A DNA stretch of 64,000 bases from Elusimicrobiota bacterium (lineage in GTDB: Bacteria; Elusimicrobiota; Elusimicrobia; UBA1565; UBA9628), in the NCBI GenBank assembly GCA_026388095.1, contig JAPLKL010000044.1:3993-67992 (forward strand), read 5' to 3'. The number at the start of each line of letters is the position of its first letter. Position 1 is the first letter of the stretch. The notes below the pieces were generated by a model. The model was not told where the DNA came from. It did not search any database and was given only the letters and a program-made list of their open reading frames with translations. Positions 1,138 to 56,764 of the stretch are shown here, one piece after another. The translations under genes were made by a program, and so were the position numbers.

Positions 1138-1509
1138 ATGATCTGCACGTCCTGCAAGAAGACCGAGGCCGTGGTCTTCATCAAGCACATCATCAACAGC
1201 CAGGTCTCCCAGGCCGCGCTCTGCGCCGCCTGCGCGGCCGAGGCCCCTGTCCCTCTCAACCCCGTCAACCCCATGGCCGCCCTCCTGCAGCTCGCGGCCA
1301 AGGCCGGGGCGCCCCGCGCCAGGGTCCCGGCCCCGGCGCCCTGCTCCGGCTGCGGCGCGACCTGGACGGATTTCCGCGAGACCGGCCGCTTGGGCTGCGC
1401 GCGCTGCTACGACCATTTCGCGGCCCTCCTGCGGCCCCTCCTCCCCCGGGTCCACGCGGGCGCCACCGTCCATCGCGGCAAGGCCCCGCCTACCCCGCCC
1501 GGCCCATGA
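1138..1509 (+). CDS. mcsA: McsA-like activator of protein arginine kinase (zinc-finger UVR-motif protein).
   Basis: MICTSCKK...CAAC...CSGCG...GRLGCARCYDHFAALLRPLLPRVHAGATVHRGK matches the B. subtilis McsA layout (MICQEC...GRFGCSECY...LRKVHSGNTVHAGK). ATGA start/stop overlap with the downstream mcsB. Confidence 0.7.
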   Translation: MICTSCKKTEAVVFIKHIINSQVSQAALCAACAAEAPVPLNPVNPMAALLQLAAKAGAPRARVPAPAPCSGCGATWTDFRETGRLGCARCYDHFAALLRPLLPRVHAGATVHRGKAPPTPPGP

Positions 1510-2558
1510 ACCTCCAAGGGATGCTGCCCTGCCGCATGGGGTGGGTCCAGGCCGAGGGGCCCAGCGCCGACGTGGTGCTCGCCAGCCGCGTGCGCCTGGC
1601 GCGCAACCTCGCCGCGGTGCAGTTCCCGGGCCGGGCCAAGGCCGCGGCCCTCAAGGCCGCGCGCGAGCAGGTCTTCGCCGCGGCGCGGCGGACCACTCTC
1701 AAGGGCGCGGCTTATCTCGAGCTCGACGGGCTCGACGACGTGGACTTGAGGTTCCTGGCCGAACGCCACCTCATCAGCCCCGCCCTGGCCGGCCGGGCCG
1801 GCCAAGGCGGGGCGGTCGTCGACCCGCGCGAGTGCCTCAACCTCATGATCAACGAGGAGGACCACCTGCGCCTCTTCGCCCTGGCGCCGGGGCTGGACCT
1901 GCGCCGGGCCGCGCGCACGGCGGGCGGCCTGGACGACGAGCTGTCCCAAAGCCTCGACTTCGCCTTCCGGCGGGACTGGGGCTACTTGACCGCCTGCCCG
2001 ACCAATCTGGGCACGGGCATGCGCGCCTCGGCCTTGATGCACCTGGCCGGCCTGGGCCTGGCCGGCCTCATCAACACGCTGCTCGAGACCCTGCCCCGCG
2101 CGGGCCTCATCGCGCGCGGACTCTACGGGGAGGGCACCAAGGTGATGGGAGACTTCTTCCAGATATCCAACGCCACGGCTTTGGGCCGCACCGAGGCCGA
2201 GCTGGCGGCCGCGGTGGAGAGCGCGGCGGAGGCCCTGGTGCGGCGCGAGAAGGACGCTCGGCAGAAGCTGGCTGCGGGGCCCGACCGCGCCCGCATCGAG
2301 GACACCGTATACCGGGCCATCGGCGTCCTGACCGGGGCGCGCCTGCTGTCTTTTGAGGAATCCTGCCGCCATCTTTCGGCTCTGCGTCTGGGACTCTCGT
2401 TGGGCTGGGCGGTCCCAGGCGACTTCGCGACCGTCAACGAACTCATGATCCTGACCCAGCCCGCGCACCTCGCGATGCTGGCGGGCAAGCCCCTCGTCGA
2501 AGAAGACCAAGCCGCACTGCGGGCCTCTTTGGTCCGCCGGCGCCTGACCGGGAAATGA
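1506..2558 (+). CDS. mcsB: Protein arginine kinase McsB (ATP:guanido phosphotransferase family).
   Basis: 350 aa starting MNLQGMLPCRMGWVQAEGP. Conserved phosphagen-kinase motifs (NEEDHLRL, CPTNLGTGMRAS, LYGEGT). Translationally coupled to mcsA. Confidence 0.85.
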   Translation: MNLQGMLPCRMGWVQAEGPSADVVLASRVRLARNLAAVQFPGRAKAAALKAAREQVFAAARRTTLKGAAYLELDGLDDVDLRFLAERHLISPALAGRAGQGGAVVDPRECLNLMINEEDHLRLFALAPGLDLRRAARTAGGLDDELSQSLDFAFRRDWGYLTACPTNLGTGMRASALMHLAGLGLAGLINTLLETLPRAGLIARGLYGEGTKVMGDFFQISNATALGRTEAELAAAVESAAEALVRREKDARQKLAAGPDRARIEDTVYRAIGVLTGARLLSFEESCRHLSALRLGLSLGWAVPGDFATVNELMILTQPAHLAMLAGKPLVEEDQAALRASLVRRRLTGK

Positions 2559-2602
2559 CCCCCTCGAAAAATTGATAGACTAAAGGCCCACAGGAGAAAC
2601 CA

Positions 2603-3229
2603 ATGGCTTTCAGCTTTCTGCCCAAGGAAGAGAAGTTCTTCAAGCTCTTCGAGGCTCAGGCCGCCTACAACTGCAAGGCCGTCAAGGCGTTCAAGGAGCT
2701 GGTGAAGAACTGGGATGAGGATTCTCCCGCCTTCGAGTCCATCCGGGAGATCGAGCACGAGGCCGACATCACCACCCACGAGATCTACGACAAGCTCAAC
2801 CGGACCTTCATCACGCCCTTCGACCGGGAGGACATCCGCCAGTTGGCCGGCGAGATGGACGACATCGTGGACATGGTGCAGTCCCTGTGCAACCGCATGC
2901 ACCTCTACCATATCCACAACTCCACCCCCGACCTCGTGCAGCTCATCGACATACTGGATCAATCGGTCGACGCCATCCGCAAGGCCATCGGAGATCTCCA
3001 GGACAAGGACAAGACCCGCCGCGTGCTGGACTACTGCATCGAGATCAACCGCCTGGAGAACACCGGGGACCATGCTCGCGACATGGCCCTGAGCAAGCTC
3101 TTCGAGGGCCAGCCCGATCCCATCGATGTGATGAAATGGAAGGAGATCTACGAGTTGGTCGAGTCCGCCCTGGACAAATGCGAGGACATCGCCAACACCA
3201 TCGAGACCATCCTGGTCAAGCAGGCCTGA
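2603..3229 (+). CDS. DUF47 (PhoU-like) family protein, putative phosphate-transport regulator.
   Basis: 208 aa. MAFSFLPKEEKFFKLFEAQA...IREIEHEADITTHEIYDKLNRTFITPFDREDI is typical of the TIGR00153/PF01865 family. Confidence 0.75.
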   Translation: MAFSFLPKEEKFFKLFEAQAAYNCKAVKAFKELVKNWDEDSPAFESIREIEHEADITTHEIYDKLNRTFITPFDREDIRQLAGEMDDIVDMVQSLCNRMHLYHIHNSTPDLVQLIDILDQSVDAIRKAIGDLQDKDKTRRVLDYCIEINRLENTGDHARDMALSKLFEGQPDPIDVMKWKEIYELVESALDKCEDIANTIETILVKQA

Positions 3230-3848: not shown

Positions 3849-4331
3849 TCATTCGACGCGGATGCTGACGATGGCGTCGTTCTGCCTGATGGCGTCGACG
3901 ACGTCCTGGCCCGCGGTCACCTGGCCGAAGACCGTGTGGATGCCATCGAGGTGCGGCGTGGGGCAGTGGGTGATGAAGAACTGGGAGCCGTTGGAGCATA
4001 TCCCCGAGAGCTTCCGGCCCGAAGCGGGGTCGTGCTCGCAGGAGCCGGCGTGGGCCATGGAGAGGGTGCCCTTGCCGTGCTTGAGCTTGGGCCGGATCTC
4101 GCACTCGATCTTGTAGCCCGGCCCGCCCGTGCCCACGGCCGGCCCCCCGTCGCGGCTCAAGGGGTCGCCGCCCTGGATCATGAAGTCCTTGATGACCCGG
4201 TGCCACTTCTGCCCGTCATAGTACTTGGAGTTGGCGAGATTCTCGAAGTTCAAGACGGTGCCGGGGCACTCGGCGTCGAAGAGCTTGAGTTTGATGGTTC
4301 CGCGGCTGGTCACGATGGTGGCTGTCTTCAT
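3849..4331 (-). CDS. ppiB: Peptidyl-prolyl cis-trans isomerase, cyclophilin type.
   Basis: 160 aa. [14 protein letters not shown]...GTLSMAHAG...SNGSQFFI...[11 protein letters not shown] are cyclophilin signature stretches. Confidence 0.9.
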
Positions 4332-4419
4332 GGAATGAGCCTAGCAAAATTTTATGAGGAATTGACGGGGTGCTGGCCGGATGGTAGTATAGGTCCCTCA
4401 CCCCCAAAGGAGCGAAAGC

Positions 4420-5451
4420 ATGAGAGCTTTGGTCAAGAAGAAGAAGGAGAAGGGCCTTTGGCTGGAGGACGTGCCCGAGCCGTCCATCGGAGACCACGAC
4501 GTCCTCATCAAGATCCGGCAGACCGCCATCTGCGGCACTGACGTGCATATCCACCAATGGGACGAGTGGGCGCAGAAGACCATCCCCGTGCCTATGCACG
4601 TGGGCCACGAGTTCGTGGGCGAGATCGCCAAGCTGGGCCCGGCGGTGCAGGGGTTGAGCGTCGGCGAGAAGGTCTCCGGCGAGGGGCATCTGGTCTGCGG
4701 CCACTGCCGCAACTGCCGCGCCGGCCACCGGCACCTCTGCATCAACACCAAGGGCATCGGCGTCAACCGACCGGGCTGCTTCGCCGAATACCTGGCCTTG
4801 CCCGCCGAGAACGTGTTCCCCATCCCGCACGGCGTGACCGACGACGAAGCCTCCATCCTCGATCCCCTGGGCAACGCGGTGCACACGGCTTTGGCCTTCG
4901 ACCTGGTCGGCGAGGACGTGCTCATCACGGGCGCCGGCCCCATCGGCATCATGGCCGCGGCCATCGCCAAGCACGTGGGCGCGCGCCACGTGGTCATCAC
5001 GGATATCAACGAGTACCGGCTGGAGCTGGCCCGCAAGGTTGGCGTGGAGAACGCCGTGGACGTGCGCACCCAGAAGCTGTCGGACGTCATGAAGAAGCTG
5101 CGCATGACCGAGGGCTTCGACGTGGGCCTGGAGATGTCCGGCAGCCCGGCCGCCTTCAACAGCATGATCGAGGTCCTCAAGATGGGGGCCAACGTGGCCC
5201 TGCTGGGCCTCCTGCCCCAGAGCACCACCATCCCCTGGAACCAGGTCATCTTCAAGGCGTTCACTCTCAAGGGCATCTACGGCCGGGAGATGTTCGAGAC
5301 CTGGTACAAGATGTGCGCCATGCTGCAGAGCGGCTTGGATATCAAGCCGGTCATCACGCACCGCTTTCCCTTCCAGGATTACGAGAAGGGCTTCGCGGCC
5401 ATGATTTCCGGCAAGTCCGGCAAGGTCATCCTGGACTGGACTCGGGCCTAA
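4420..5451 (+). CDS. tdh: L-threonine 3-dehydrogenase (zinc-dependent MDR family).
   Basis: 343 aa. MRALVKKK...CGTDVHI...GHEFVGEI...[19 protein letters not shown]...[20 protein letters not shown] is near-canonical Tdh. Confidence 0.9.
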
Positions 5452-8550: not shown

Positions 8551-11043
8551 ATGAACGACCAGAAGCCCCTTTTCCTGACCGACGCCCAGCTCCAAAACGA
8601 GATGGAGAAGTGCGAATACTGCGCGGAAAAGCCCTGCCAAGCGGGCTGCCCCGCGGACTGCTCCCCGGCCGATTTCATCATGGCCGCGATGAAGGGCGAA
8701 GCCTCGGACTACAAGCGCTCCGCGGCCTTGATCATGGGCCACAACCCGCTCGGCGGAGTGTGCGGCGCGGTCTGCCCGGACAAGCACTGCATGGCGAAGT
8801 GCTCGCATAAGGAGTTCGACGCTCCCCTCGACATCCCGGCCATGCAGGCCACCATCGTGCAGAAGGCCAAGGACCTGGGCGTCATGCCCCGCTTCGAGCT
8901 GGCCAAGCCCAACGGCAAGAAGGTCTCCGTGGTGGGCGCCGGCCCCGCAGGGCTGGGCGCGGCCGCGCTGCTGGCCCAGAAGGGCTACGCCGTGGACGTC
9001 TTCGACGCGGACCGCCGCGTGGGCGGCATGTGCAACCTCATCCCGGACTTCCGCCTGGACAAGCGCGTGCTCGACACGGACATCGACTTCCTGCGCTCGC
9101 TGGGCCACATCACCTTCAAGCTGGGCAAGAAGGTCCCGACGCCGGCGACCTTGGCCGCCAAGTACCACGCCGTGGTGGTGGCCTCCGGCCTGGACAACCC
9201 CATCCGCCTGGGCATCCCGGGCGAGGAAGCCTCCCTCAACTGGTTCGCCTGCCTCAAGGACCCGGCCAAGCACCCGCTCAAGGGCCGGCGCGTGGCCGTC
9301 ATCGGCGGCGGCGCCGTGGCCGCCGACTGCGCCGAGACCGCGGCCGAGCAGGGCGCGGCCTCAGTCGAGCTCTTCTGCCTGGAGAAGCTCGGCGAGATGC
9401 CGCTGACCGCCAAGGAGATGAAGGGCCTGCTCGACACCGGCGCCCAGATCACCGGCCGCATCAGCGTCACCGCCATCCTGGCCAAGGCCGGCAAGGCCGT
9501 GGGCCTGGAGACCGTCAAGGTCGCTCTGCCCAAGGGCAGGAAGTTCCATCCGCGCGAGGTCAAGGCCCTGGCGGGCTCGCAAGCTCGCCGCCAGGACATC
9601 GACTGCGTCATCATCGCCATCGGCTCGCGGCCCACGGTCAAGGCCGAGGAGCGCAAGGGCGTGTTCTTCGCCGGCGACATGCAGAACGGCCCCACCACGG
9701 TGGTGGAAGCCGTGGCCGCGGGCAAGAACGCGGCCTTGGAGCTAGACGCGTATCTCTCCAAGGGCCCCAAGCCCGCCATCGACAGGAAGGTCAAGAGCCA
9801 CGCCCTGCTGCCGGGCCGCAACCTCATGCCCGTGCCGCTGGAGGCCGACTTCTTCGGCCGCAAGATCATCTCGCCCTTCCTGCTTTCGGCCGCGCCGCCT
9901 TCGGACGGCTACGACCAGATGAGGAAGGCCTACGAGGCCGGCTGGCCGGGCGGCGTGATGAAGACCGCCTTCGACGGCGTGCCGATCCATATCCCGTCCG
10001 AATACATGTTCGCATTCACGCAGTCGACCTACGCCAACTGCGACAACGTTTCGGGCCATCACCTCGAGCGCGTGCGCCGCGAGATCGAGCGCCTGGTCAA
10101 GGAATACCCGGACCGCCTCACCATGGCCTCCACGGGCGGCCCGGTGACGGGCAACGACGAGAGCGATAAGAAGGGCTGGCAGTCCAACACCAAGAAGCTC
10201 GAGGACTGCGGCGTGATGGGCATCGAGTACAGCCTCTCCTGCCCGCAGGGCGGCGACGGCACCAAGGGCGACATCGTCAGCCAGGATGCGGAGCTCACGG
10301 CCAAGATCATCGGCTGGGTGCTCTCCAGCGGCGACCCGGACATCCCGAAGCTCTTCAAGCTCACGGCCGCAGTGACCGCGATCTACCCCATCATGGCCGA
10401 GATCAAGAAGGTCCTGGCGCGGTACCGCAACGCCAAGGCCGGAGTGACCTTGGCCAACACCTTCCCGACTTTGGGCTTCCGCAAGGGCGAGAAATCCACC
10501 TGGGAAGAGGGCGTGGTGGTGGGCATGAGCGGCGAGGGGGTCATCCCGATCTCGAACCTGACCTTGGCCAACGTCTCGCGCATGGGCGTGGCGGTCTCCG
10601 GCAACGGCGGCCCCATGGACTATAAGTCAGCCGCGGACTTCCTGGCTCTGGGCGCCAAGACCGTGCAGTTCTGCACCATCGTGATGAAGCAGGGCTACGG
10701 CATCATCGACGAGCTGCACTCGGGCGTCTCGCACCTGATGGAGGCGCGGGGGATCTCTTCGATGGACCAGCTCATCGGCCGGGCGCTGCCGGACCCCATC
10801 CGGGGCTTCATGGAGCTCTCTCCGGTCAAAAAGATCTCCGCGGTCAAGGACGAGCTCTGCATGCACTGCGGCAACTGCACCCGCTGCCCGTACCTGGCCG
10901 TCAGCCTCAGCGACGAGAAGGTCCCGGAGACCGACCCGGAGCGGTGCGTGGGCTGCTCCATCTGCACCCAGAAGTGCTTCTCCGGCGCGCTCTACATGCG
11001 CCAACGGACCCATAAGGAACTGGCCGCCCTGAAGGAAGCCTAA
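8551..11043 (+). CDS. Fused PreT/PreA-type NAD(P)-dependent dihydropyrimidine dehydrogenase-like oxidoreductase. GltD-like FAD/NAD(P) domain plus DHODH-like FMN domain plus C-terminal 2x[4Fe-4S].
   Basis: 830 aa. N-terminal Cys cluster; VSVVGAGPAGLGAAALLAQKG dinucleotide fold; second Rossmann VAVIGGGAVAADCAETA; GIEYSLSCPQGGDG DHODH-like motif; C-terminal CMHCGNCTRCP...CVGCSICTQKC ferredoxin motifs. Domain order is the same as mammalian DPD. Confidence 0.75.
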   Translation: MNDQKPLFLTDAQLQNEMEKCEYCAEKPCQAGCPADCSPADFIMAAMKGEASDYKRSAALIMGHNPLGGVCGAVCPDKHCMAKCSHKEFDAPLDIPAMQATIVQKAKDLGVMPRFELAKPNGKKVSVVGAGPAGLGAAALLAQKGYAVDVFDADRRVGGMCNLIPDFRLDKRVLDTDIDFLRSLGHITFKLGKKVPTPATLAAKYHAVVVASGLDNPIRLGIPGEEASLNWFACLKDPAKHPLKGRRVAVIGGGAVAADCAETAAEQGAASVELFCLEKLGEMPLTAKEMKGLLDTGAQITGRISVTAILAKAGKAVGLETVKVALPKGRKFHPREVKALAGSQARRQDIDCVIIAIGSRPTVKAEERKGVFFAGDMQNGPTTVVEAVAAGKNAALELDAYLSKGPKPAIDRKVKSHALLPGRNLMPVPLEADFFGRKIISPFLLSAAPPSDGYDQMRKAYEAGWPGGVMKTAFDGVPIHIPSEYMFAFTQSTYANCDNVSGHHLERVRREIERLVKEYPDRLTMASTGGPVTGNDESDKKGWQSNTKKLEDCGVMGIEYSLSCPQGGDGTKGDIVSQDAELTAKIIGWVLSSGDPDIPKLFKLTAAVTAIYPIMAEIKKVLARYRNAKAGVTLANTFPTLGFRKGEKSTWEEGVVVGMSGEGVIPISNLTLANVSRMGVAVSGNGGPMDYKSAADFLALGAKTVQFCTIVMKQGYGIIDELHSGVSHLMEARGISSMDQLIGRALPDPIRGFMELSPVKKISAVKDELCMHCGNCTRCPYLAVSLSDEKVPETDPERCVGCSICTQKCFSGALYMRQRTHKELAALKEA

Positions 11044-43190: not shown

Positions 43191-44492
43191 ATGAAGGCCC
43201 TGGCACTCGCCTTGCTCGCGCTGGCCGCCGCGCCGGTCCACGGCGTGGAGGTGGCGCGCGTGCAGGTGGCCGCGCCGGTCAACTCCTTCATCACGGGCGC
43301 CTCGGCCGTGGGCGCGCGCTCCCAGATCGGCCCGCTGGCCAACCCGTCCCTGTCGGGCGCGGGCGCGCTGTCTTTGACCTCGAAGCTGGCCGTCCCGACC
43401 TTGGTCCCGACGGTGATCCCCGTGGCGCCGGGAGTCCAGTCCTACTCCGCTCCCAGCGCGGCCCCCCAGACGGTCTCCGCAATCCCGCTCTCCGCTCCCG
43501 CGGCGCTGGCTCCGACGGGCGGCGCCTCGCTGCTGCAGCAGTCCGCGGAGCAGAAGAGCGCGCCGGCGGCCGCGGTGAACACTTTGCACGGCTTCGTGGC
43601 GCAGATGGAGTCCAGCCGGGTCTCGGGCCGGAACATCTCCAACGAGCTCTCCAACCGTTTCTTCGACCAGTCCGGCACGCGGGGCCCGCCGCTCGCGGTT
43701 CCGGCCGAGGCCTCGGTCTCCGACGTCGCGGCGCCCAAGCTGCCTCAGGGCGTAACCAAGGTGGCGGTGGACACGGTGCGCAGCGCCGCGGACGTGCAGC
43801 GCCTCATCCCGGACAGCGGGAACTCAAAGAGCCTCAAGGCCAAGCTCAAGCGCATGGTCTCGCAGATGGCGCCTTACCAGATCTATACCTATTACGACCG
43901 GAAGGGCGGGCGCTTCGCGGGCATCGATCTTTCCGCCAGACCCGGCTTGATCGACCAGATCCCGGAGCTGCAGCAGCACGAGGTGAAGCTCATCAAGAAG
44001 CTGATGCTGGTCAACAGCGACATCCGGGTCCTGGTGCGCGAGGACGGAAAGACCCCGGACCTGGTGATAGGCGACAAGCTGGTGGAGATCAAGAGTTCCC
44101 TCGGGGAGGCTATGGCTTTGGAGTCGCTCATCGCGAAGGCCAACATGCAGATCTTGGAGCACGGCCAGCGCCACGGCTTGGGGCGCGGCGCTATGGCTTT
44201 GGATTTGACGCGCCAGTCGCGGGTCCCGGTGGCCGAGGTCCAGGGCATCCTGGACTCCTGGCAGGCGGGGTCTAAGGACCAGATTGTTTTGGAGCAGGTG
44301 ATCGTGTTCGGCCAGACGGACATGCAGGTCTTCATGCGCCAGGCGGACGGAACCTACCGGATCCAGGCGCCGGCCGCCGCGGTCCGGCACATCGTCAACG
44401 AGCGGCCGCTGGCCCCGTCCGAAAGGGGCCGGGCTCAGGCGCTGCTGCGCAACGGCATCGAGAAGTCGCCGGTGCTGGCCCTGAGCCTGTAG
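43191..44492 (+). CDS. Secreted hypothetical protein with Ala/Pro-rich linker and C-terminal domain carrying a PD-(D/E)xK-like motif.
   Basis: Signal peptide MKALALALLALAAAPVHG. TATAAT at 43173-43178. Motif TPDLVIGDKLVEIKS. Immediately upstream of tRNA-Gln. Confidence 0.6.
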   Translation: MKALALALLALAAAPVHGVEVARVQVAAPVNSFITGASAVGARSQIGPLANPSLSGAGALSLTSKLAVPTLVPTVIPVAPGVQSYSAPSAAPQTVSAIPLSAPAALAPTGGASLLQQSAEQKSAPAAAVNTLHGFVAQMESSRVSGRNISNELSNRFFDQSGTRGPPLAVPAEASVSDVAAPKLPQGVTKVAVDTVRSAADVQRLIPDSGNSKSLKAKLKRMVSQMAPYQIYTYYDRKGGRFAGIDLSARPGLIDQIPELQQHEVKLIKKLMLVNSDIRVLVREDGKTPDLVIGDKLVEIKSSLGEAMALESLIAKANMQILEHGQRHGLGRGAMALDLTRQSRVPVAEVQGILDSWQAGSKDQIVLEQVIVFGQTDMQVFMRQADGTYRIQAPAAAVRHIVNERPLAPSERGRAQALLRNGIEKSPVLALSL

Positions 44493-44546
44493 GCTGCCAC
44501 CCCGGCCCGGCAAATTTTGGTAGAATATGTCCGTTCACCGATTTAT

Positions 44547-44617
44547 TGCCGGATGGTGAAATGGTATCACGGGTGGCTCTGAACCACTTATTCTAGGTTC
44601 GAATCCTAGTCCGGCAG
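44547..44617 (+). tRNA. tRNA-Gln (anticodon CUG).
   Basis: Cloverleaf by hand. Acceptor TGCCGGA/TCCGGCA with U1-A72; D-stem GTGA/TCAC; anticodon stem GGTGG/CCACT with loop CTCTGAA (CUG); variable TATT; T-arm CTAGG-TTCGAAT-CCTAG; discriminator G. No encoded CCA. Confidence 0.8.
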
Positions 44618-44637
44618 AACTTTAGCGGCAAAAAAAA

Positions 44638-44662
44638 TGAAGCCCTCCGAAAAGGAGGGCTT
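44638..44662. terminator. Intrinsic-terminator-like hairpin GAAGCCCTCC-GAAAA-GGAGGGCTTC (member of repeated hairpin family).
   Basis: 10-bp perfect stem downstream of the tRNA and convergent with the CDF gene stop at 44676. Confidence 0.55.
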
Positions 44663-44675
44663 CCGTGTTTCTGGC

Positions 44676-45335
44676 TTACTCGCAGTGGGAGCAGCCGCAC
44701 CCGCCGCTGAAATTCTCGTGGCGGGATGCCTGGACCGCTTCGACGCCCTCCTTGCCGATCAGGATGGCTAGGACGAGTCCCGCAACAGAGTCAGCCCACC
44801 AAAGAGACGGCAGCAGGAAGAATACCAGGCTTCCTCCCAGGAGCACGGTCGAGAGCTTGATGCAGACCAGCGAGCAGTCGGCGTCCTTCATCATGGTCGC
44901 GCTGTCGAGACCTGCGGCGACGTTCTTCTTGGAACGCCAAAGATAGAACATAAAAGTCAGACTGATGACCGATACCAGGATTCCGGGTATAACCGTCTCC
45001 GGCTGCGCTCGCTGGGCGAGCTTGACCAAACACCCAGCCGTCGTCAGGATGCCCAAGGCGACAAAGAGGAGTCCTATCACGAACACGGCGCGTCGCTCGG
45101 CGTCGAGGGAGATTGCCTCCCGCTTGCCCATCTCGCTTTGGAATCGCCAAAGCACTACTACGGCGGACGCCACTTCGATGAAGCTGTCTAATCCAAAGCC
45201 AGCCAACGCGAGCGATTCCTTCTCCAGGCCGAAGTAGACCGAGACCAAGCCCTCCAGAACGTTGTATCCAATCGTGAACCAGGAAAGCTGGATGGCTCGC
45301 TTTAGGTAGACGGTTTTAGCCGCGTCCATATTCAC
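44676..45335 (-). CDS. Cation-diffusion-facilitator (CDF)-like transmembrane protein with Cys-rich C-terminus; lacks the cytoplasmic C-terminal domain.
   Basis: 219 aa, ~6 TM. FGLDSFIEVASAVVVLWRF is CDF TM2-like with Asp; ends GGCGCSHCE. Lower-GC gene. Confidence 0.55.
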   Translation of the reverse strand: MNMDAAKTVYLKRAIQLSWFTIGYNVLEGLVSVYFGLEKESLALAGFGLDSFIEVASAVVVLWRFQSEMGKREAISLDAERRAVFVIGLLFVALGILTTAGCLVKLAQRAQPETVIPGILVSVISLTFMFYLWRSKKNVAAGLDSATMMKDADCSLVCIKLSTVLLGGSLVFFLLPSLWWADSVAGLVLAILIGKEGVEAVQASRHENFSGGCGCSHCE

Positions 45336-45408
45336 AGTATATCAGTTGACTGTCGATGCATGGTGCAGATGACGTTCCCCCCGAAAACCAGGCCAAGTGG
45401 ATCAATAA

Positions 45409-45520
45409 GCGCAATTAAACGCGCCTTCGGCCAAGAAAGTTCTAAACTCGTCCAAGTAGGGCAGAACTTTCTCGACGACCGACGACCCGTAGGGCAACCT
45501 GCGGGTCGCTTCATTTTGAG
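45409..45520 (+). ncRNA. Copy 1 of a conserved ~75-nt structured element followed by a terminator hairpin (candidate sRNA or shared cis-regulatory element).
   Basis: GCAATTAAACGCGCCTTCGGCCAAGAAAGTTCTAAACTCGTCCAAGTAGGGCAGAACTTTCTCGACGACCGACG, then GACCCG-loop-CGGGTC and CATTTTG. Aligns with the copies at 47829 and 49293. Confidence 0.45.
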
Positions 45521-45648
45521 CCTTGCGAGGCGGGCGGACACCGCTGCGGGCACCGGTTACTGCGGGATGAAGAGATGGAACTCGTCATCCGGGCGGCGGC
45601 GGGGTTCGGGAAGTCGCGCCGGCGGTGTCTGTTTGACTAAGCGAAGGC

Positions 45649-47052
45649 TTAGTAGAACTTGAGCGCCGGGTCAGCGGCGCTCAGCCGGGGCGTTTGTTCT
45701 CGGTTCTGACGGCGCGCGGCGCGCGGCACCTCGCGCGCGAGATAATCGCCGAGTTCCGCCATGGTCACGTGCCCGTCCTTGTTAGCGTCCGCCGCTCCCT
45801 GGAGTCCCTTGAGCAGGAAATACGTGAACACCCCGTGCCCCTCATCCTGCAGGCCGCCGGCAATCTGGTCGCCGGCCGACGCTGTCAGGATGGAGAAGCG
45901 CGGGTCGCTCGGCGCGTCGGTTTGCCGGACCGTGACGAGGGGGCGGGCGCCTTTGGCCAGGACGGAGCGGCCGCCCGCGCCCGAAAAGCAGGCGTCAATG
46001 ATGACGACGATTTGGCGGGCTTTGAGTGCCGCCAAGCGCTCGTAGAGGCGGGACAACGGGTACGCGCTCGATTCCAGGAAGGCCGGGTCGCCGTCCCAGG
46101 GCACCAGATAGGCGCTGCCTTTGACCGGGTCCGGGGCGCCATGTCCGGAGTAATAGACCCACAGGCGCGATTTCTCGGTGACATTCTTCGGCAGCCACTC
46201 CTCGATGTAGCGGGCGAGGCCGGCGCGCGTGGCCCGCGAGCCCAAGAGCGCAATCGCATTCTCCTTTGGAACGCCCAGGCGCTCCACCGCGTAGCGCCCG
46301 AACGCTGCGGCGTCGCGCTCGCCGAATTCGGCTTCGGGGATGGACTGGTAGCGCTCTACGCCCATGATGAGGGCGTAATCGTCCGGCTGGGGAACGGTCT
46401 GGGCGCCAGGCTCCTCCACGTCGGACCGGCGCGCCTGCGCGACAGGGGAAGGCGCTGCGGGCGCGGCGGGAGGCTGGCCGCCAGCCTGCAGGAACGCCTC
46501 GCTCAGGTTGAGCATCGACTCGTCCGACTCCAGCGTCGCGAAGGCTTCTCCGAAGGCCATGGTCAGGGCGGTCTGCGGGTCGTTGGCCCGGCCGCTACCG
46601 GCGTAGCCGCGGGCCCAGAGTCGGGCGCGCCGGCGGCTATCGACGATGGTCAGTTCGAAGGCGGCGTCGGCCCGGTAGTCCTTGGTGAACTGCAGGGCGC
46701 CCACCTCCGCGCGCTGGATGGTCCCGCGCAGGGCCAAGGGTGAGGGGCCGCCCAGGACGCCCTTGCGCTCCAGGGCTGCGGCGACATTGCGCTCCACGCT
46801 GGCGCCCAGGTCTCCTCCGGCGGAGATGGCCGTTTGCCCCGCCACGCTGAATCCGCCGTAGCCGAAGAGCGAGGGGTCGCGCCTTTCGTCGTGGAAGCGT
46901 TCGACGACGACGGCGAAAAGGGGCTCGCGCGCCTGCGCGGGGCGCGGCTGCGGCATGAGGGCGTCCACGGGCAGTACGCGGGGCGTAGCCACCGTCATGC
47001 AGCCGGACAGGCCGGCCATGCCGATGACGGCAAGGAGGGCCAGCCGCCTCAT
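45649..47052 (-). CDS. Caspase-like (peptidase C14) lipoprotein.
   Basis: Starts MRRLALLAVIGMAGLSGC (lipobox). C-terminal caspase domain YYSGHGAPD...IVVIIDACFSG (His-Gly / Cys dyad). The upstream 250 codons of annotated ORF 45649-47814 are R/P/G-rich read-through and are rejected. Confidence 0.7.
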   Translation of the reverse strand: MRRLALLAVIGMAGLSGCMTVATPRVLPVDALMPQPRPAQAREPLFAVVVERFHDERRDPSLFGYGGFSVAGQTAISAGGDLGASVERNVAAALERKGVLGGPSPLALRGTIQRAEVGALQFTKDYRADAAFELTIVDSRRRARLWARGYAGSGRANDPQTALTMAFGEAFATLESDESMLNLSEAFLQAGGQPPAAPAAPSPVAQARRSDVEEPGAQTVPQPDDYALIMGVERYQSIPEAEFGERDAAAFGRYAVERLGVPKENAIALLGSRATRAGLARYIEEWLPKNVTEKSRLWVYYSGHGAPDPVKGSAYLVPWDGDPAFLESSAYPLSRLYERLAALKARQIVVIIDACFSGAGGRSVLAKGARPLVTVRQTDAPSDPRFSILTASAGDQIAGGLQDEGHGVFTYFLLKGLQGAADANKDGHVTMAELGDYLAREVPRAARRQNREQTPRLSAADPALKFY

Positions 47053-47720
47053 CGCGCCACCTTGACGAGCATGTCGCGCGACATGCGGACCGCTCGGCGC
47101 GTGATCGACGACAGGAGGAGTCCGCCCTCCCGGCCCACGTCCGCGGCCATGACCTCGTCGGTGAAGGTGTGGCTCGTGGTGTGGAACCGCCGGGTGCCCG
47201 TGCTGTCCTCTATGGACAGGAGCTCGACATTGCCCTTGCCCAGCACCGAGAGCTTCCAGTCCAGGGAGAGTTCGACGAAGGTGCCGCCGCCGCCGAACAG
47301 GGGGTCGCCCCATTGGAAATTCTCTTCGATGGCGGCCACGGCCAGCACCACGACGGCGTCGTATTCGCCGGGGGGCGGTAGTTGGCGCAGGACCGAGACG
47401 CTCTGGAACGCGCCGGGGAAGGCCTCGGCCGCCTGGCGCGCCAGCTCCTCGGGGATGGGCAGGTACTTCTCCCCGCCGAAGTGCTCGGTCTGGTCCTGCC
47501 GCACGCTGTGGCCGCGGCCTCCCTGCAAGGAGAGATAATACCGGAAGCCCATGGGGTCTGGGATGACCACGGCCAGGTGCAAGGGAAGCTTCTGCTCCGG
47601 AGTCAGTCCGAGGTCGGGTGTGGGTCCGCGGAAAGGGATGGGCCGGACCTGGATGGTGAAGCAGGCGGCCAAGGACAGACAGAGTGCGGCGCCTGCCGTC
47701 GTCAGGATGAGATTCTTCAT
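47049..47720 (-). CDS. Lipoprotein of unknown function, translationally coupled to the caspase-like gene.
   Basis: MKNLILTTAGAALCLSLAAC lipobox with a GGAG RBS. ATGA overlap with the downstream gene. Confidence 0.6.
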   Translation of the reverse strand: MKNLILTTAGAALCLSLAACFTIQVRPIPFRGPTPDLGLTPEQKLPLHLAVVIPDPMGFRYYLSLQGGRGHSVRQDQTEHFGGEKYLPIPEELARQAAEAFPGAFQSVSVLRQLPPPGEYDAVVVLAVAAIEENFQWGDPLFGGGGTFVELSLDWKLSVLGKGNVELLSIEDSTGTRRFHTTSHTFTDEVMAADVGREGGLLLSSITRRAVRMSRDMLVKVAR

Positions 47721-47828
47721 GGGGACATCTCCGGAGCCCACTGATCAGAGAGATGCACCGGCATCCGTGATGATTGTAGAAAAAAGCGCTGGCGTTGTGG
47801 GACAAACAAGTCAAGCCCGGAGCATTAG

Positions 47829-47927
47829 ATGCAATTGAATGCGTTTTCGGTGAGAAAAGTTCGAAAGTCGTCTAAGCAGGGCAGAACTCTCCGACGAACG
47901 AGGCCCTTGGCGTGAAGCTGAGGGCCT
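47829..47927 (+). ncRNA. Copy 2 of the conserved structured element with strong intrinsic terminator.
   Basis: GCAATTGAATGCGTTTTCGGTGAGAAAAGTTCGAAAGTCGTCTAAGCAGGGCAGAACTCTCCGACGAACG, then CGAGGCCCT-loop-AGGGCCTCG and TTTTTTT. Confidence 0.45.
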
Positions 47928-48023
47928 CGTTTTTTTCGGCTTACAACTACGGGGTGTCTGGTATGGCGAGGTCCGTGATGCGCTCGCAGTCTAAGCGCAC
48001 CTGGGCTCGCGCCGCGTCATTGA

Positions 48024-49076
48024 TCAGTGGCGCGGCCCTTCAGCGCGGTCCGCAAGCAACTGTGCCTCCAATCTCCGGACCTTGGCGATCAAGTCGGGGA
48101 GCCTCCTCAAGGCGGCGTGCATCTTGTGAGCCTCCCGGGCAGGCAGGGCCGGAGTCCCGAAATAGGCTTGTCCGGGCTCCGTATCCTGTGCCAACCCGGA
48201 CATGCCCATGACGCCCGACCCCTTGGCGACCCGCACATGGTCCTTGACGATGACCATCCCGGATATCATCGCCCCGTCCTCGATGACCACGGAGCCGCCG
48301 ATAGCCGTGTTCCCTATGATGTAGATGAATCGGCCGATCCGGCAGTTGTGCCCGATGTGGACCTGGTCGTCGATCTTCGTGTATGTCCCTATCGTGGTGC
48401 TCTCGATGGTCGCCCGGTCGATGGTGCATCCGGCGCCGATTTCGACGTGATCGCTGATGACGACGTTGCCGATCTGGGGGATCTTGTGCCTTTGGCCAGG
48501 CCGGTCATAGTATCCGAACCCGTCCGCTCCGATCACGGCGCCTCCGTAGATGATGCAGCGCTTGCCCACGACGCAGTGATGGCCGACGACGGCGCGGGGA
48601 TAGAGGACGGTGCCTTCCCCGACCTCGGCATACGGCTCGACGACCGAGCCCGGATAGAGGACGCACCCGGGTTCGATGACGGCGTTCGCCATCACGACGG
48701 CGCCCGGAAGGATGGCGGAGCTCTCCGCGATACGGGCCGATGAATCCACTTTGGCCGCACTCGAAATCCCCGGCTCGAATGCTGGTGCCTTATCGAAGAT
48801 TTTCAGAACCTTAATGAAGACCAGACGGACATCCTCTGCGGAGATGAGAGCCCGACGGAATTGACCGGACAACTGCTTGGTCGTCAACACCGCGCCGTGC
48901 TCCGCCATGAGGGGATGGCGCTTCAATACCGCCTTGGACTCAACGAAGTAGAGGCGGTTTTCTTCGGGGAGTTGATCGGAAGATAGGCACTCGACATCCC
49001 GAATCCCGAGGATTGCATAATCCGCTTCCCCCTTGACCTCGACACCCAGCATCCGGCCTAGTTCTTGCAGCGTCAT
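48024..49076 (-). CDS. lpxD: UDP-3-O-acylglucosamine N-acyltransferase LpxD.
   Basis: Starts MTLQELGRMLG with a GGAGGAG RBS. Hexapeptide repeats; GADGFGY...KIPQIGNVVISDHVEIGAGCTIDR. Lower-GC gene. Confidence 0.8.
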   Translation of the reverse strand: MTLQELGRMLGVEVKGEADYAILGIRDVECLSSDQLPEENRLYFVESKAVLKRHPLMAEHGAVLTTKQLSGQFRRALISAEDVRLVFIKVLKIFDKAPAFEPGISSAAKVDSSARIAESSAILPGAVVMANAVIEPGCVLYPGSVVEPYAEVGEGTVLYPRAVVGHHCVVGKRCIIYGGAVIGADGFGYYDRPGQRHKIPQIGNVVISDHVEIGAGCTIDRATIESTTIGTYTKIDDQVHIGHNCRIGRFIYIIGNTAIGGSVVIEDGAMISGMVIVKDHVRVAKGSGVMGMSGLAQDTEPGQAYFGTPALPAREAHKMHAALRRLPDLIAKVRRLEAQLLADRAEGPRH

Positions 49077-49292
49077 CAACTCTCCTCCAGCGCCAAGGGG
49101 CACCGAAAGTCTGCCTCAAGCCCGAGGACGGGAAGCAGCTTCGGTAACCCCTCCGGCGACGCGGGTCTGCCTGTCCTCAGTTATACCGCTTGCGCCGGGG
49201 GAGCGTCAACCATCCGCAGGGAGTATGTCCACTTGGGCCGTTGCTGTGTCGACCCGACCTTTCCCCCGAAGACTGGGCCAATCTCATTGATA

Positions 49293-49384
49293 GCCGCAGT
49301 TAAGCGGTTTCCGCCAAGAAAGTCCTAAAGTCGTCTAAGTAGGACAGCCATTCTCTGAAGCCCTCCGAAAGGAGGGCTTTTTCT
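49293..49384 (+). ncRNA. Copy 3 of the conserved structured element, terminating in the GCCCTCCGAAAGGAGGGC hairpin plus T-run.
   Basis: GCAGTTAAGCGGTTTCCGCCAAGAAAGTCCTAAAGTCGTCTAAGTAGGACAGCCATTCTCTGAAGCCCTCCGAAAGGAGGGCTTTTTC. Compensatory GTCCT/AGGAC here versus GTTCT/AGAAC in copy 1. Confidence 0.45.
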
Positions 49385-55462: not shown

Positions 55463-55603
55463 ACTCGGGCCCTCCTTTCCCAGGAGGGTTCCTTGTTTCC
55501 CTACACCCAAACTGCTTGAATAGGGCCAGGCGATGGAGTTCGCCTGAACCGCCCCGGCGACGGGGCTGATGACTCCTACCGATCGCGGTAGGAGTCTCTT
55601 TTT
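55463..55603 (+). promoter_or_regulatory. Structured leader with multiple hairpins, ending in a strong intrinsic terminator immediately before the antiporter RBS (candidate attenuator or riboswitch).
   Basis: CCCTCC-TTTCCCA-GGAGGG; CAGGCG-N8-CGCCTG; GCCCCG-GCGA-CGGGGC; GACTCCTACCG-ATCG-CGGTAGGAGTC plus TTTTTTT; then GAGGGGAG RBS and ATG at 55616. Confidence 0.4.
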
Positions 55604-55615
55604 TTGAGGGGAGAC

Positions 55616-56764
55616 ATGGACACGATCTACGCCGCGACCTGCATCACCCTTCTGGTCTTCATCGCCAGCGTCTTCTCCGTCGAGCTGGCGCTCTCGGCGG
55701 CCATCATCGAGATCGCGGTCGGCGTCATCGCCGGCAACTTCCTCGGCCTGCAGTCCGCGCCCTGGATGGACTTCCTCGCGGGCTTCGGCGGCATCCTGCT
55801 CACCTTCCTGGCCGGGGCCGAGGTGGACCCCAAGATCATGCGGGAGAAGTTCAAGGAGAGCGTTCTCATCGGAGGGATCTCATTTTTGGTCCCCTATCTG
55901 GCCGCCATCGCCTACTGCCGCTGGGCCGCCGGCTGGACCTGGGACGCCTCGCTCATCGCGGGCTGCGCGCTCTCGACGACGTCCTTGGCCGTGGTCTACG
56001 CGGTCCTGGTCGAGACCGGACTGACCAGGACCGAGATCGGCAAGGTCATCATGGCCGCCACCTTCGTCACGGACTTCGGCGTGGCCATGGCCCTGTCCTT
56101 GACCTTCGCCCGATACGACCGCTACACCCTGTGCTTCATCCTGGGCTCGGCCCTGCTCATCACGGCCGCGGCCCGCTGGCTGCCCGGCGTGTTCCTGCGC
56201 TACGGCAAGCGGGTCATAGAGCCGGAGATCAAGCTCCTTTTCTTCCTGCTCTTCTGCTTCATGTCCTTGGCCAAGCTGGGCCAAGGGCACGCGGTCCTGC
56301 CGGTCTTCATCCTGGGCCTGTGCCTGGCCGCGCTCTTCCGCGAGCATCAGGAGCTCCAGAAGAAGCTCCGCGTCGTGGCCTTCGCCATGATCACGCCCTT
56401 CTTCTTCATCAAGGGCGGCATGAACGTGTCGCTGGGCTCCGTCCTGGCCCAATGGCCGCTCTTCCTGATCCTGTTCGGGGTCAAGCTCGCGGCCAAGTTC
56501 GTCGGGGTCTGGCCCCTGGCCAGGCTCTACGCGCGCGGCCACGCCGAGTACACGACCTTGCTCATGAGCACCGGCTTGACCTTCGGGACCATCTCGTCGC
56601 TCTACGGGCTCCAGGCCGGCTACATCGACAAGGGTCAGTTCTCGGTCCTGGTGGCCGTGGTCATCGGGACGGCCATCATCCCGACCTTCATCGCCCAGCG
56701 CTGGTTCTCCCCGGCGCTGCCGGAGGCCGAGGAACTGCTGGCTCGGGAGGAAGAGAGCTCCTGA
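55616..56764 (+). CDS. Cation:proton antiporter (CPA/Na+-H+ exchanger family).
   Basis: ~11 TM; typical Na_H_Exchanger segments. The annotated TTG start at 55604 is rejected in favour of the ATG after the RBS. Confidence 0.75.
   Translation: MDTIYAATCITLLVFIASVFSVELALSAAIIEIAVGVIAGNFLGLQSAPWMDFLAGFGGILLTFLAGAEVDPKIMREKFKESVLIGGISFLVPYLAAIAYCRWAAGWTWDASLIAGCALSTTSLAVVYAVLVETGLTRTEIGKVIMAATFVTDFGVAMALSLTFARYDRYTLCFILGSALLITAAARWLPGVFLRYGKRVIEPEIKLLFFLLFCFMSLAKLGQGHAVLPVFILGLCLAALFREHQELQKKLRVVAFAMITPFFFIKGGMNVSLGSVLAQWPLFLILFGVKLAAKFVGVWPLARLYARGHAEYTTLLMSTGLTFGTISSLYGLQAGYIDKGQFSVLVAVVIGTAIIPTFIAQRWFSPALPEAEELLAREEESS

Follow-up and report, generated by a model that had tools for sequence, protein, structure and literature searches.

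What do three copies of one conserved element, spread over 4 kb, do downstream of a tRNA-Gln gene in the genome of an Elusimicrobiota bacterium? The window in which they lie is a stretch of 64,000 nt of contig JAPLKL010000044.1 (assembly GCA_026388095.1), and the original prediction took them for a multicopy family of structured small RNAs (sRNAs), each ending in an intrinsic terminator, with a shared operator or leader as an alternative. Our analysis points in another direction. We put the probability at roughly 0.7 that the elements are attachment (att) recombination sites of a small mosaic island that site-specific insertion has built up at the tRNA-Gln 3′ end, and on balance we favor a large serine recombinase (LSR) as the enzyme that inserted them.

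The copies are named c1, c2 and c3 in the order of the plus strand, and other loci are labelled L001 and so on. All three were recovered by an nhmmer core profile, at 45409-45474, 47830-47893 and 49295-49357 (E 1e-20 to 3e-18), within cores that span 45409-45475, 47829-47895 and 49293-49358, and a degenerate core pattern matched the window three times against zero matches expected by chance, which bears out the claim of three homologous plus-strand copies. Neither the nhmmer profile nor a covariance model found a fourth copy in the 64-kb window. The hairpin and T-run that had been described 3′ of each copy on the plus strand are likewise present, the tail of c1 being weak. In the element consensus the left half (P) reads GTTCKRAA-N-TCGTC-YAAG-N-AGGR and is followed by the putative crossover dinucleotide CA (GA in some lineages); the right half provides a trailer for the tRNA together with an intrinsic terminator. 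The parts of the tRNA gene and of the three copies are listed here with their putative junction types, B denoting an attB-type and P an attP-type half-site:

44546-44618, plus strand: tRNA-Gln(CTG), called by ARAGORN and Rfam; its 3′ end is a putative attB-type (B) half-site, now probably part of an attL-type junction
44597-44614, plus strand: B half-site of tRNA-Gln, GTTCGAATCCTAGTCCGG, followed by the putative crossover CA at 44615-44616
44617-44672, plus strand: current trailer and terminator of tRNA-Gln, GAACTTTAGCGG, with a hairpin at 44639-44663; probably element-derived (P′-type)
45371-45517, plus strand: c1, putative internal P-CA-P′ junction, covariance model score 82.9 bits
45371-45438, plus strand: left arm of c1
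45439-45461, plus strand: P half-site of c1, GTTCTAAACTCGTCCAAGTAGGG, followed by CA at 45462-45463
45483-45508, plus strand: right half and terminator hairpin of c1, with a weak T tail
47820-47936, plus strand: c2, putative internal P-CA-P′ junction, covariance model score 79 bits
47859-47881, plus strand: P half-site of c2, followed by CA at 47882-47883
47899-47929, plus strand: terminator hairpin of c2, followed by a T-run (seven T) at 47930-47936
49255-49384, plus strand: c3, putative attR-type junction, covariance model score 69.8 bits
49255-49321, plus strand: left arm of c3
49322-49344, plus strand: P half-site of c3, GTCCTAAAGTCGTCTAAGTAGGA, followed by CA at 49345-49346
49345-49382, plus strand: 38-nt block of c3 (CAG, CCA, trailer and terminator), probably the displaced native end of tRNA-Gln
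49357-49380, plus strand: terminator hairpin of c3

One argument for insertion comes from the ends of the tRNA gene in relatives. The relatives L034-L039 all keep ORF842, ORF433 and, after this pair, tRNA-Gln(CTG), and the DNA 3′ of ORF433-tRNA-Gln is entirely different in each of them. The tRNA-Gln of L034 and L035 ends ...GTCCGG-CA-GCCATTCTCTGAAGCCCTCCGAAAGGAGGGCTTTTT, with the trailer CAGCCATTCTCTGAAGCCCTCC in place of the GAACTTTAGCGG of the window, where the gene has neither an encoded CCA nor the native trailer found in relatives. That native end is found at c3, the right half of which, CAGCCATTCTCTGAAGCCCTCCGAAAGGAGGGCTTTTT, matches L034 and L035 at 38 of 38 positions, from the 3′ end of their tRNA-Gln through CCA and trailer to the terminator, the homology breaking off directly to the left of CAG. 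After its CA, the window tRNA-Gln reads GAACTTTAGCGG, like the right halves of c1 (GAACTTTCTCG) and c2 (GAACTCTCCG); all three have GAACT(T/C)T in common, and an 11-bp identity, GGCAGAACTTT, is shared by the tRNA gene and c1. Because c3 carries the native tRNA end and the window tRNA carries a trailer like those of c1 and c2, the tRNA is most likely an attL-type junction, c1 and c2 internal P-CA-P′ junctions between stacked modules, and c3 an attR-type junction, with a putative crossover at the CA of the tRNA 3′ end. The hybrid junctions expected of LSR att sites, i.e. attR composed of a P half and the native B′ flank and attL composed of a B half and a P′ flank, are thus present. A likeness of the copies to the end of tRNA-Gln had been noticed from the window alone and proves to be far more extensive than it first seemed, and the suggestion drawn from it, that serial integration at tRNA-Gln left att remnants, is now strongly supported by the displaced native trailer in c3, the crossover CA and the attP-half geometry.

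This geometry bears on the class of enzyme. The left half of the element opens with GTTCKRAA, which is the T-loop motif of tRNA (GTTCGAAT). GTTC lies 23 nt from the crossover in 23 of 25 measured copies, 24 nt from it in the two exceptional copies, one of which is degenerate, and 18 nt from it in all nine tRNAs examined, so that GTTCGAA stands exactly 5 bp further out in elements than in tRNAs. Counting the first base of the dinucleotide as 1 puts the motif at 16-24 in the elements and at 11-19 in the tRNA. In serine integrases, a 9-bp motif for the zinc-ribbon domain (ZD) is found at positions 16-24 of attP and 5 bp nearer the center, at 11-19, in attB (Rutherford et al. 2013, PMC3783163); the offset of 23 versus 18 nt therefore matches the published attP/attB geometry of LSRs. 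The central dinucleotide also tracks the local tRNA, being CA in both partners in the window and L001 and GA in both partners in L005 (tRNA-Asn) and L020 (tRNA-Gln). Partner sites thus have identical central dinucleotides, although with two states only the support that this gives is modest. TCGTC and GACGA are placed symmetrically, each some 11-15 nt away from the CA, with matching changes in L003a, L003b and L024a. We also considered that the left half might mimic a tRNA T arm, and rejected this, as the bases on either side of GTTCKRAA are unable to pair and ARAGORN makes no call at this position.

The association with tRNA genes extends beyond the window. A DNA pattern scan covering one genome per species gave matches in metagenome-assembled genomes (MAGs) of Elusimicrobia only, namely Ca. 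Endomicrobium trichonymphae and two others, one of them with three copies in 4 kb, and metagenome contigs contributed about 15 further loci. The window, with a 100% match to MCX5795931.1, is likewise part of an Elusimicrobia MAG. The query of the metagenome scan was a back-translated minus-strand peptide, and more copies were later found by profile. To the copies already known from nhmmer the covariance model added a single left-arm remnant in L024, and it had no match in the loci that combine a tRNA with an LSR. The core is near-invariant across contigs of about 31% to 61% GC. Copies are often clustered and co-oriented, with three in 4 kb in both the window and L003, three in 3 kb in L005 and five in 9 kb in L024. 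In all five loci with a tRNA in view, the copies lie 3′ of it in the same orientation: c1 is 0.8 kb downstream of tRNA-Gln in the window, as is the copy of L001; the copy of L020 is 8 kb downstream of tRNA-Gln; three copies follow tRNA-Asn in L005; and in L015, which has a tRNA-Gly and a 3′ fragment of tRNA-Gln, one copy lies about 1 kb downstream of tRNA-Gly. Moreover, the 3′ part of the copies resembles the end and trailer of their own local tRNA. The trailer and terminator of the three L005 copies score 14.5-18.5 against the local tRNA-Asn versus 4-8 against foreign tRNAs, and the usual right half of the family, GCCACTCTCGACGC, matches the tRNA-Gln trailer of L001, GCCAATCTTGACGCG. The tRNA-Gln fragment of L015 (positions ~333-395, AGGTCCGAATCCTAGTCCCGGAG), 3′ of tRNA-Gly, has a terminator of its own and its own trailer, a homologue of the one in the L015 element.

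Recombinase genes of the expected class adjoin the same tRNAs in relatives. In L039, which is the orthologous tRNA-Gln locus, an LSR gene (Resolvase, Recombinase and Zn_ribbon_recom domains) terminates within the tRNA-Gln 3′ end, and a LexA/S24-type repressor gene comes after it. Homologues of this LSR with 50-93% identity are common in Elusimicrobia, and in every locus fetched via these recombinases a tRNA 3′ end adjoins the LSR: tRNA-Gln in L040, L041-43 and L049, tRNA-His in L044-46 and tRNA-Asn in L050/51. A further homologue, P0079 in L053, seen via a neighboring helicase gene, is not beside a tRNA. The P′ arm of the LSR prophage in L041, GCCATCTTTGACGG, resembles the right half of the elements. 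In L020 a different LSR adjoins tRNA-Gln, and the motif follows 8.1 kb beyond, with genes for a rolling-circle Rep, a NERD protein and a GNAT protein in between. The element with an LSR at tRNA-His in L044/L045 comes from the same run as the window (SRR20698638), with protein accessions that are far apart, so that a common genome is not established. Wherever such a recombinase gene adjoins a tRNA, it is on the opposite strand and its stop codon overlaps the tRNA gene, within the final 12-14 bases of the latter (L020 176-188; L039 3972-3984; also L040, L041-46 and L049-51). The 8-kb tRNA-Gln island of L020 encodes a Phage_CRI/G2P rolling-circle initiator of the filamentous-phage or plasmid type and a NERD nuclease-related protein (1836-2909, minus strand; 4124-4891, plus strand).

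Between the sites lie modules of 0.7-3.6 kb with one to three unrelated genes each. Those of the window, which confirm by Pfam the minus-strand neighbors as first read, are:

44676-45335, minus strand: CDF (cation-efflux) gene, the module nearest the tRNA (Pfam PF01545)
45649-47741, minus strand: middle module, with a lipoprotein-like gene (47049-47741) and a caspase-domain gene (45649-47052; Pfam PF00656)
48024-49103, minus strand: distal module, with a hexapeptide (LpxD-like) acyltransferase gene (Pfam PF00132)

The modules elsewhere are different: Fur, PTPS, GDSL lipase, DUF3568, esterase, DsrE, RibD_C and methyltransferase in L005; methyltransferase, ScdA/hemerythrin, NrfHA, CLC channel, porin and NadE in L024; PhnA, TPM phosphatase and ArsA in L003; and in L001 a toxin-antitoxin pair, which stands between tRNA-Gln and the element where the window has its CDF gene. 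This pair (L001 3370-4050, minus strand, Ca. Endomicrobium trichonymphae), a RelE-like killer gene and a helix-turn-helix antidote gene, was identified by eye; a Pfam scan of L001 3368-3676 returned no family. Across 44.5-49.5 kb of the window the GC content is 0.56-0.64 versus 0.67-0.73 on either side, and the description of these modules as lower-GC cargo accordingly holds for the presence of a drop, which is only mild. The related array L024 provides the best view of the mosaic. A block of 1206 bp with the LpxD-like gene (48049-49254) is 93.9% identical between the window and L024 by blastn and alignment; apart from the sites it is the sole DNA that L024 shares with the whole window, and it is flanked by two sites in both. 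The lipoprotein and caspase module has no homologue in L024. Over its full length, terminator included, c2 is closest to L024a (81% identity over 108 nt). Thus c2 (47829-47927), which by its position beside the LpxD-like block is the counterpart of L024d, is by sequence nearest to L024a (the two L024 copies compared with it lie at 8594-8685 and 2586-2677), which points to a shuffling of sites and modules. At the L024 position orthologous to c3 (1298-1327, minus strand) the left arm alone remains (covariance model E=0.13), and about 450 nt beyond this remnant, at L024 786-863 (minus strand), is a degenerate full copy with CG at the crossover and no terminator.

Based on these observations, we propose that attP-type sites were carried on small circular modules, or on larger elements that were later reduced, and that an LSR supplied in trans would have inserted these modules at the CA of tRNA-Gln. 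The zinc-ribbon domain of the LSR would recognize GTTCGAA, which spans 11-19 in the tRNA and 16-24 in the element. The CDF module, the lipoprotein and caspase module and the LpxD-like module would have been inserted successively, with newer ones nearest the tRNA. The plus-strand terminators would then be replacements carried by the incoming DNA, which end transcription of the tRNA after insertion, rather than terminators of sRNAs. It is also possible, although we consider it rather doubtful, that these sites belong to an LSR-run, integron-like platform for gene capture in Elusimicrobia and related lineages. The tRNA 3′ end (Gln, Asn and perhaps others) would serve as its fixed docking site, and recombinases of prophage-like elements located elsewhere would act in trans to insert, stack and exchange promoter-independent mini-cassettes of one to three genes, each with one conserved attP-type site that gives the tRNA a new trailer and a new terminator.

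Several observations weigh against att sites served by an LSR. The 64-kb window encodes no recombinase, the arrays L003, L005 and L024 have no recombinase gene beside them, and the far-end junction of a prophage with an LSR of the Elusimicrobia family was not captured via neighboring genes (10-kb flanks; L053 is not at a tRNA). L020, the only complete example of tRNA, LSR and motif together, has an LSR just 27% identical to the Elusimicrobia family. The right half has no mirrored GTTCGAA, only the TCGTC/GACGA symmetry, and conservation in Elusimicrobia-type copies reaches about 35 nt further left than the footprint of an LSR. The site flanks of the LpxD-like block are unrelated between the window and L024, and the strict motif had zero matches in IMG/VR viral contigs. 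Finally, canonical serine integrases recombine attP with attB only, so that tandem P-CA-P′ junctions would need a more permissive enzyme or another route. A loose motif gave seven chance matches in IMG/VR, none with the GGG-N-AG segment or a terminator, and the provirus fragment L047 merely begins inside tRNA-Gln.

How do other explanations fare against the same evidence? That the copies are sibling trans-acting sRNAs, each with its own promoter and terminator and with an invariant stretch of about 30 nt as a seed or protein-binding region, would account for the clear same-strand hairpin and T-run in 18 of 27 copies, for a core almost invariant in contigs of about 31% to 61% GC, for the clustering, which is like that of known sibling sRNAs, and for a small hairpin, GUCY-AAGNA-GGRC, that tolerates changes from U.G to U-A and from U.G to C-G. 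The two stems thought to be preserved by compensatory changes do not survive the addition of homologues, however. For 18 Elusimicrobia-type copies RNAalifold kept only a 4-bp hairpin with no double compensatory change; helices of the proposed kind were paired in 70.1% of cells versus 68.8% in shuffles; and the covariation score was 0.130 versus 0.119 in shuffles, 102 of 500 of which scored at least as high. A covariance-model search recovered the nhmmer copies and the L024 remnant, and a scan of Rfam 15 found no family at the gathering threshold or at E<=10, its few hits being due to chance. The conserved part of the element is its primary sequence. No sigma-70-like promoter was found in the region (scan, 0 sites), and the terminator hairpin is generic and varies between copies. 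The hairpin that ends many copies, GCCCTCC-loop-GGAGGGC, also occurs at unrelated intergenic sites, including directly behind the tRNA, and appears to be a lineage-typical intrinsic terminator. An sRNA would moreover leave unexplained why the 3′ parts copy the local tRNA end and trailer, why the native tRNA-Gln trailer is in c3, why GTTCGAA is shifted 5 bp outward and why synteny breaks at the copies. With no Rfam match, no covariation and a generic terminator, the proposed sRNA family is not supported, and we judge it improbable. Quite improbable, too, is that the same accretion of att sites was driven, in the manner of a CIME or a tycheposon, by a tyrosine integrase, a type of enzyme for which tandem attL/attR insertion is routine. 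The 3′ ends of tRNA genes are the classic targets of such enzymes, tycheposons are known to form tandem arrays in which the repeats resemble part of a tRNA (bioRxiv 10.1101/2020.12.28.424599), and the 11-bp identity joins tRNA and c1. Nevertheless, no tyrosine recombinase was found in any Pfam-scanned locus, all recombinases found at these tRNAs are LSRs, and the repeats are not true partial tRNAs, having instead a distinct half-site with the fixed 5-bp offset that is a hallmark of LSRs.

Three further explanations were weighed. A shared operator, promoter or 5′ leader of minus-strand genes would suit the window, in which each copy is 100-240 nt upstream of such a gene. Since copies in L005, L012/L020, L013 and L015 come 0-45 nt after co-oriented plus-strand genes with no minus-strand gene following, and since the neighboring genes are functionally unrelated, gene orientation contradicts this alternative of the original prediction, which is very improbable. 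We hold the two others to have next to no chance. One is a minus-strand small protein gene, in which the core reads WLPYLDDFRTFLAE and then a stop (VLPYLDEFRTFLAEGAFNCAY*). The peptide (..LPYLDDFRTFL..) was convincing in six copies, being conserved in c1-c3 and L001-L003 with many apparently synonymous differences (Arg as AGA, CGA and AGG; Leu as TTG, CTC and CTG). Yet codons that could vary freely (Thr ACT, Asp GAC, Pro CCC, Arg xGA) are fixed whether a contig is AT-rich or GC-rich, a start codon is missing from c2, a stop precedes the frame by two codons in L024b and stop positions vary, and copies found by profile have frameshifting 1-nt insertions (L005a, L005c) or a change from F to S (L024d). 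Fixed nucleotides and frameshifted but intact copies indicate that constraint acts on the nucleotide sequence and not on a protein, and the peptide was rejected on these grounds. The other is that the elements are integron attC sites between gene cassettes, as the alternation of genes and sites and the small, unrelated cargo (GNAT, hydrolases, methyltransferases) might suggest. It was rejected on site anatomy: there are no inverted R″/R′ core sites (RYYYAAC...GTTRRRY), and nothing after the hairpin complements the conserved left part. In addition, the scanned loci contain no IntI-type tyrosine recombinase, and the sites imitate the end of the tRNA that serves as anchor of the array.

Some further observations concern the core, the terminators and the surroundings of the island. 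Readings of the core as a sigma-54 or sigma-70 promoter were rejected, the spacing being unfit and the scan giving 0 sites. The terminator hairpin was likewise rejected as an integral part of the element, being a generic terminator of these genomes: near-identical GCCCTCC-loop-GGAGGGC hairpins are found at 44642, 49360, 52141 and 59820 in the window, at 4102 in L001 and at 6201 in L003, and the loop is inverted in the hairpin of L024c. Just 5′ of tRNA-Gln, an open reading frame (ORF) at 43191-44492 (plus strand) encodes a conserved secreted protein with no Pfam domain; it has homologues (P0012, P0014, P0015 and P0017), and its more distant homologues have a guanyl-specific ribonuclease domain (PF00545). 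A fluoride riboswitch (Rfam RF01734, 61.8 bits) at 55520-55585 (plus strand) lies just 5′ of a plus-strand ORF at 55604-56764.

If the elements are indeed att sites, an apparent new sRNA family is instead the record of a flexible genomic island being built beside tRNA-Gln in a poorly known phylum. It would offer a natural, multi-genome example of the attP/attB half-site rule, with the universal T-loop of tRNA as the distal recognition motif, and would include tandem stacks of recombinase-less mini-modules, which are known from SCCmec-type islands and are undescribed for tRNA-targeting serine recombinases. The candidate attP/attB pairs and cognate recombinases (e.g. P0022, P0057 and P0062) might serve as tools for genome engineering. 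For annotation, the lesson would be that a conserved motif and a terminator 3′ of a tRNA need not mean an sRNA.

Sibling sRNAs such as Qrr1-5, OmrA/B and LhrC1-5 occur in several copies per genome, in which an invariant stretch of about 30 nt is followed by an intrinsic terminator. The elements described here share the copy number, the invariant stretch of about 30 nt and the terminator, whereas they imitate the local tRNA end, coincide with recombination junctions and give no evidence of a promoter or a conserved structure. Integron attC sites are imperfect palindromes with R″/L″ and L′/R′ core sites, in arrays headed by an IntI integrase; neither was found in the scanned loci. The att sites of LSRs (A118/LI, Bxb1 and phiC31; PMC3783163) are a closer match: they, too, are short primary-sequence sites around a shared 2-bp crossover, with a distal motif of about 9 bp that is 5 bp nearer the center in attB than in attP (here, 18 versus 23 nt), and integration generates hybrid junctions, with the recombinase gene beside one junction, as in relatives of the window. 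The present system differs in its putative target, a tRNA gene at its very 3′ end with the T-loop as distal motif, and in its tandem attP-like junctions, which have no recombinase gene and no obvious mirrored right motif.

At the level of the island, the closest parallels are the SCC/ECC islands, in which CcrAB/CcrC LSRs insert DNA at the 3′ end of rlmH, a conserved housekeeping gene (PMC6222049). Such islands are composite: they contain several att repeats, their cargo is highly variable and some of their segments have no recombinase of their own; multiple attR sites are found in 16 of 32 ECCs and in complex SCCs, and the accumulation of multiple att sites and recombinase-less segments provides a precedent for tandem junctions (PMC6222049). 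The anchor here is a tRNA and not rlmH, however, the modules are tiny (0.7-3.6 kb, one to three genes), the phylum is Elusimicrobia, and the recombinases are single LSRs of another lineage rather than CcrA/CcrB pairs; of the features that mark SCC/ECC islands (ccrAB/ccrC, rlmH and ISS repeats with TATCATAA), the target and the repeat are different. Tycheposons resemble the array as hypervariable islands beside tRNAs, with adaptive cargo and scattered att remnants, in which successive integrations push older elements inward (bioRxiv 10.1101/2020.12.28.424599). Among elements of the tycheposon type, 910 of 937 use tyrosine recombinases and the repeats are true partial tRNAs (bioRxiv 10.1101/2020.12.28.424599), whereas the arrays scanned here have a distinct conserved half-site and lack a tyrosine recombinase, hallmark replication genes and partial-tRNA repeats. 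Because target, repeat sequence and recombinase lineage all differ, the system is a member of none of those named; it is like the att sites of serine integrases and, at the island level, like SCC/ECC and tycheposon islands.

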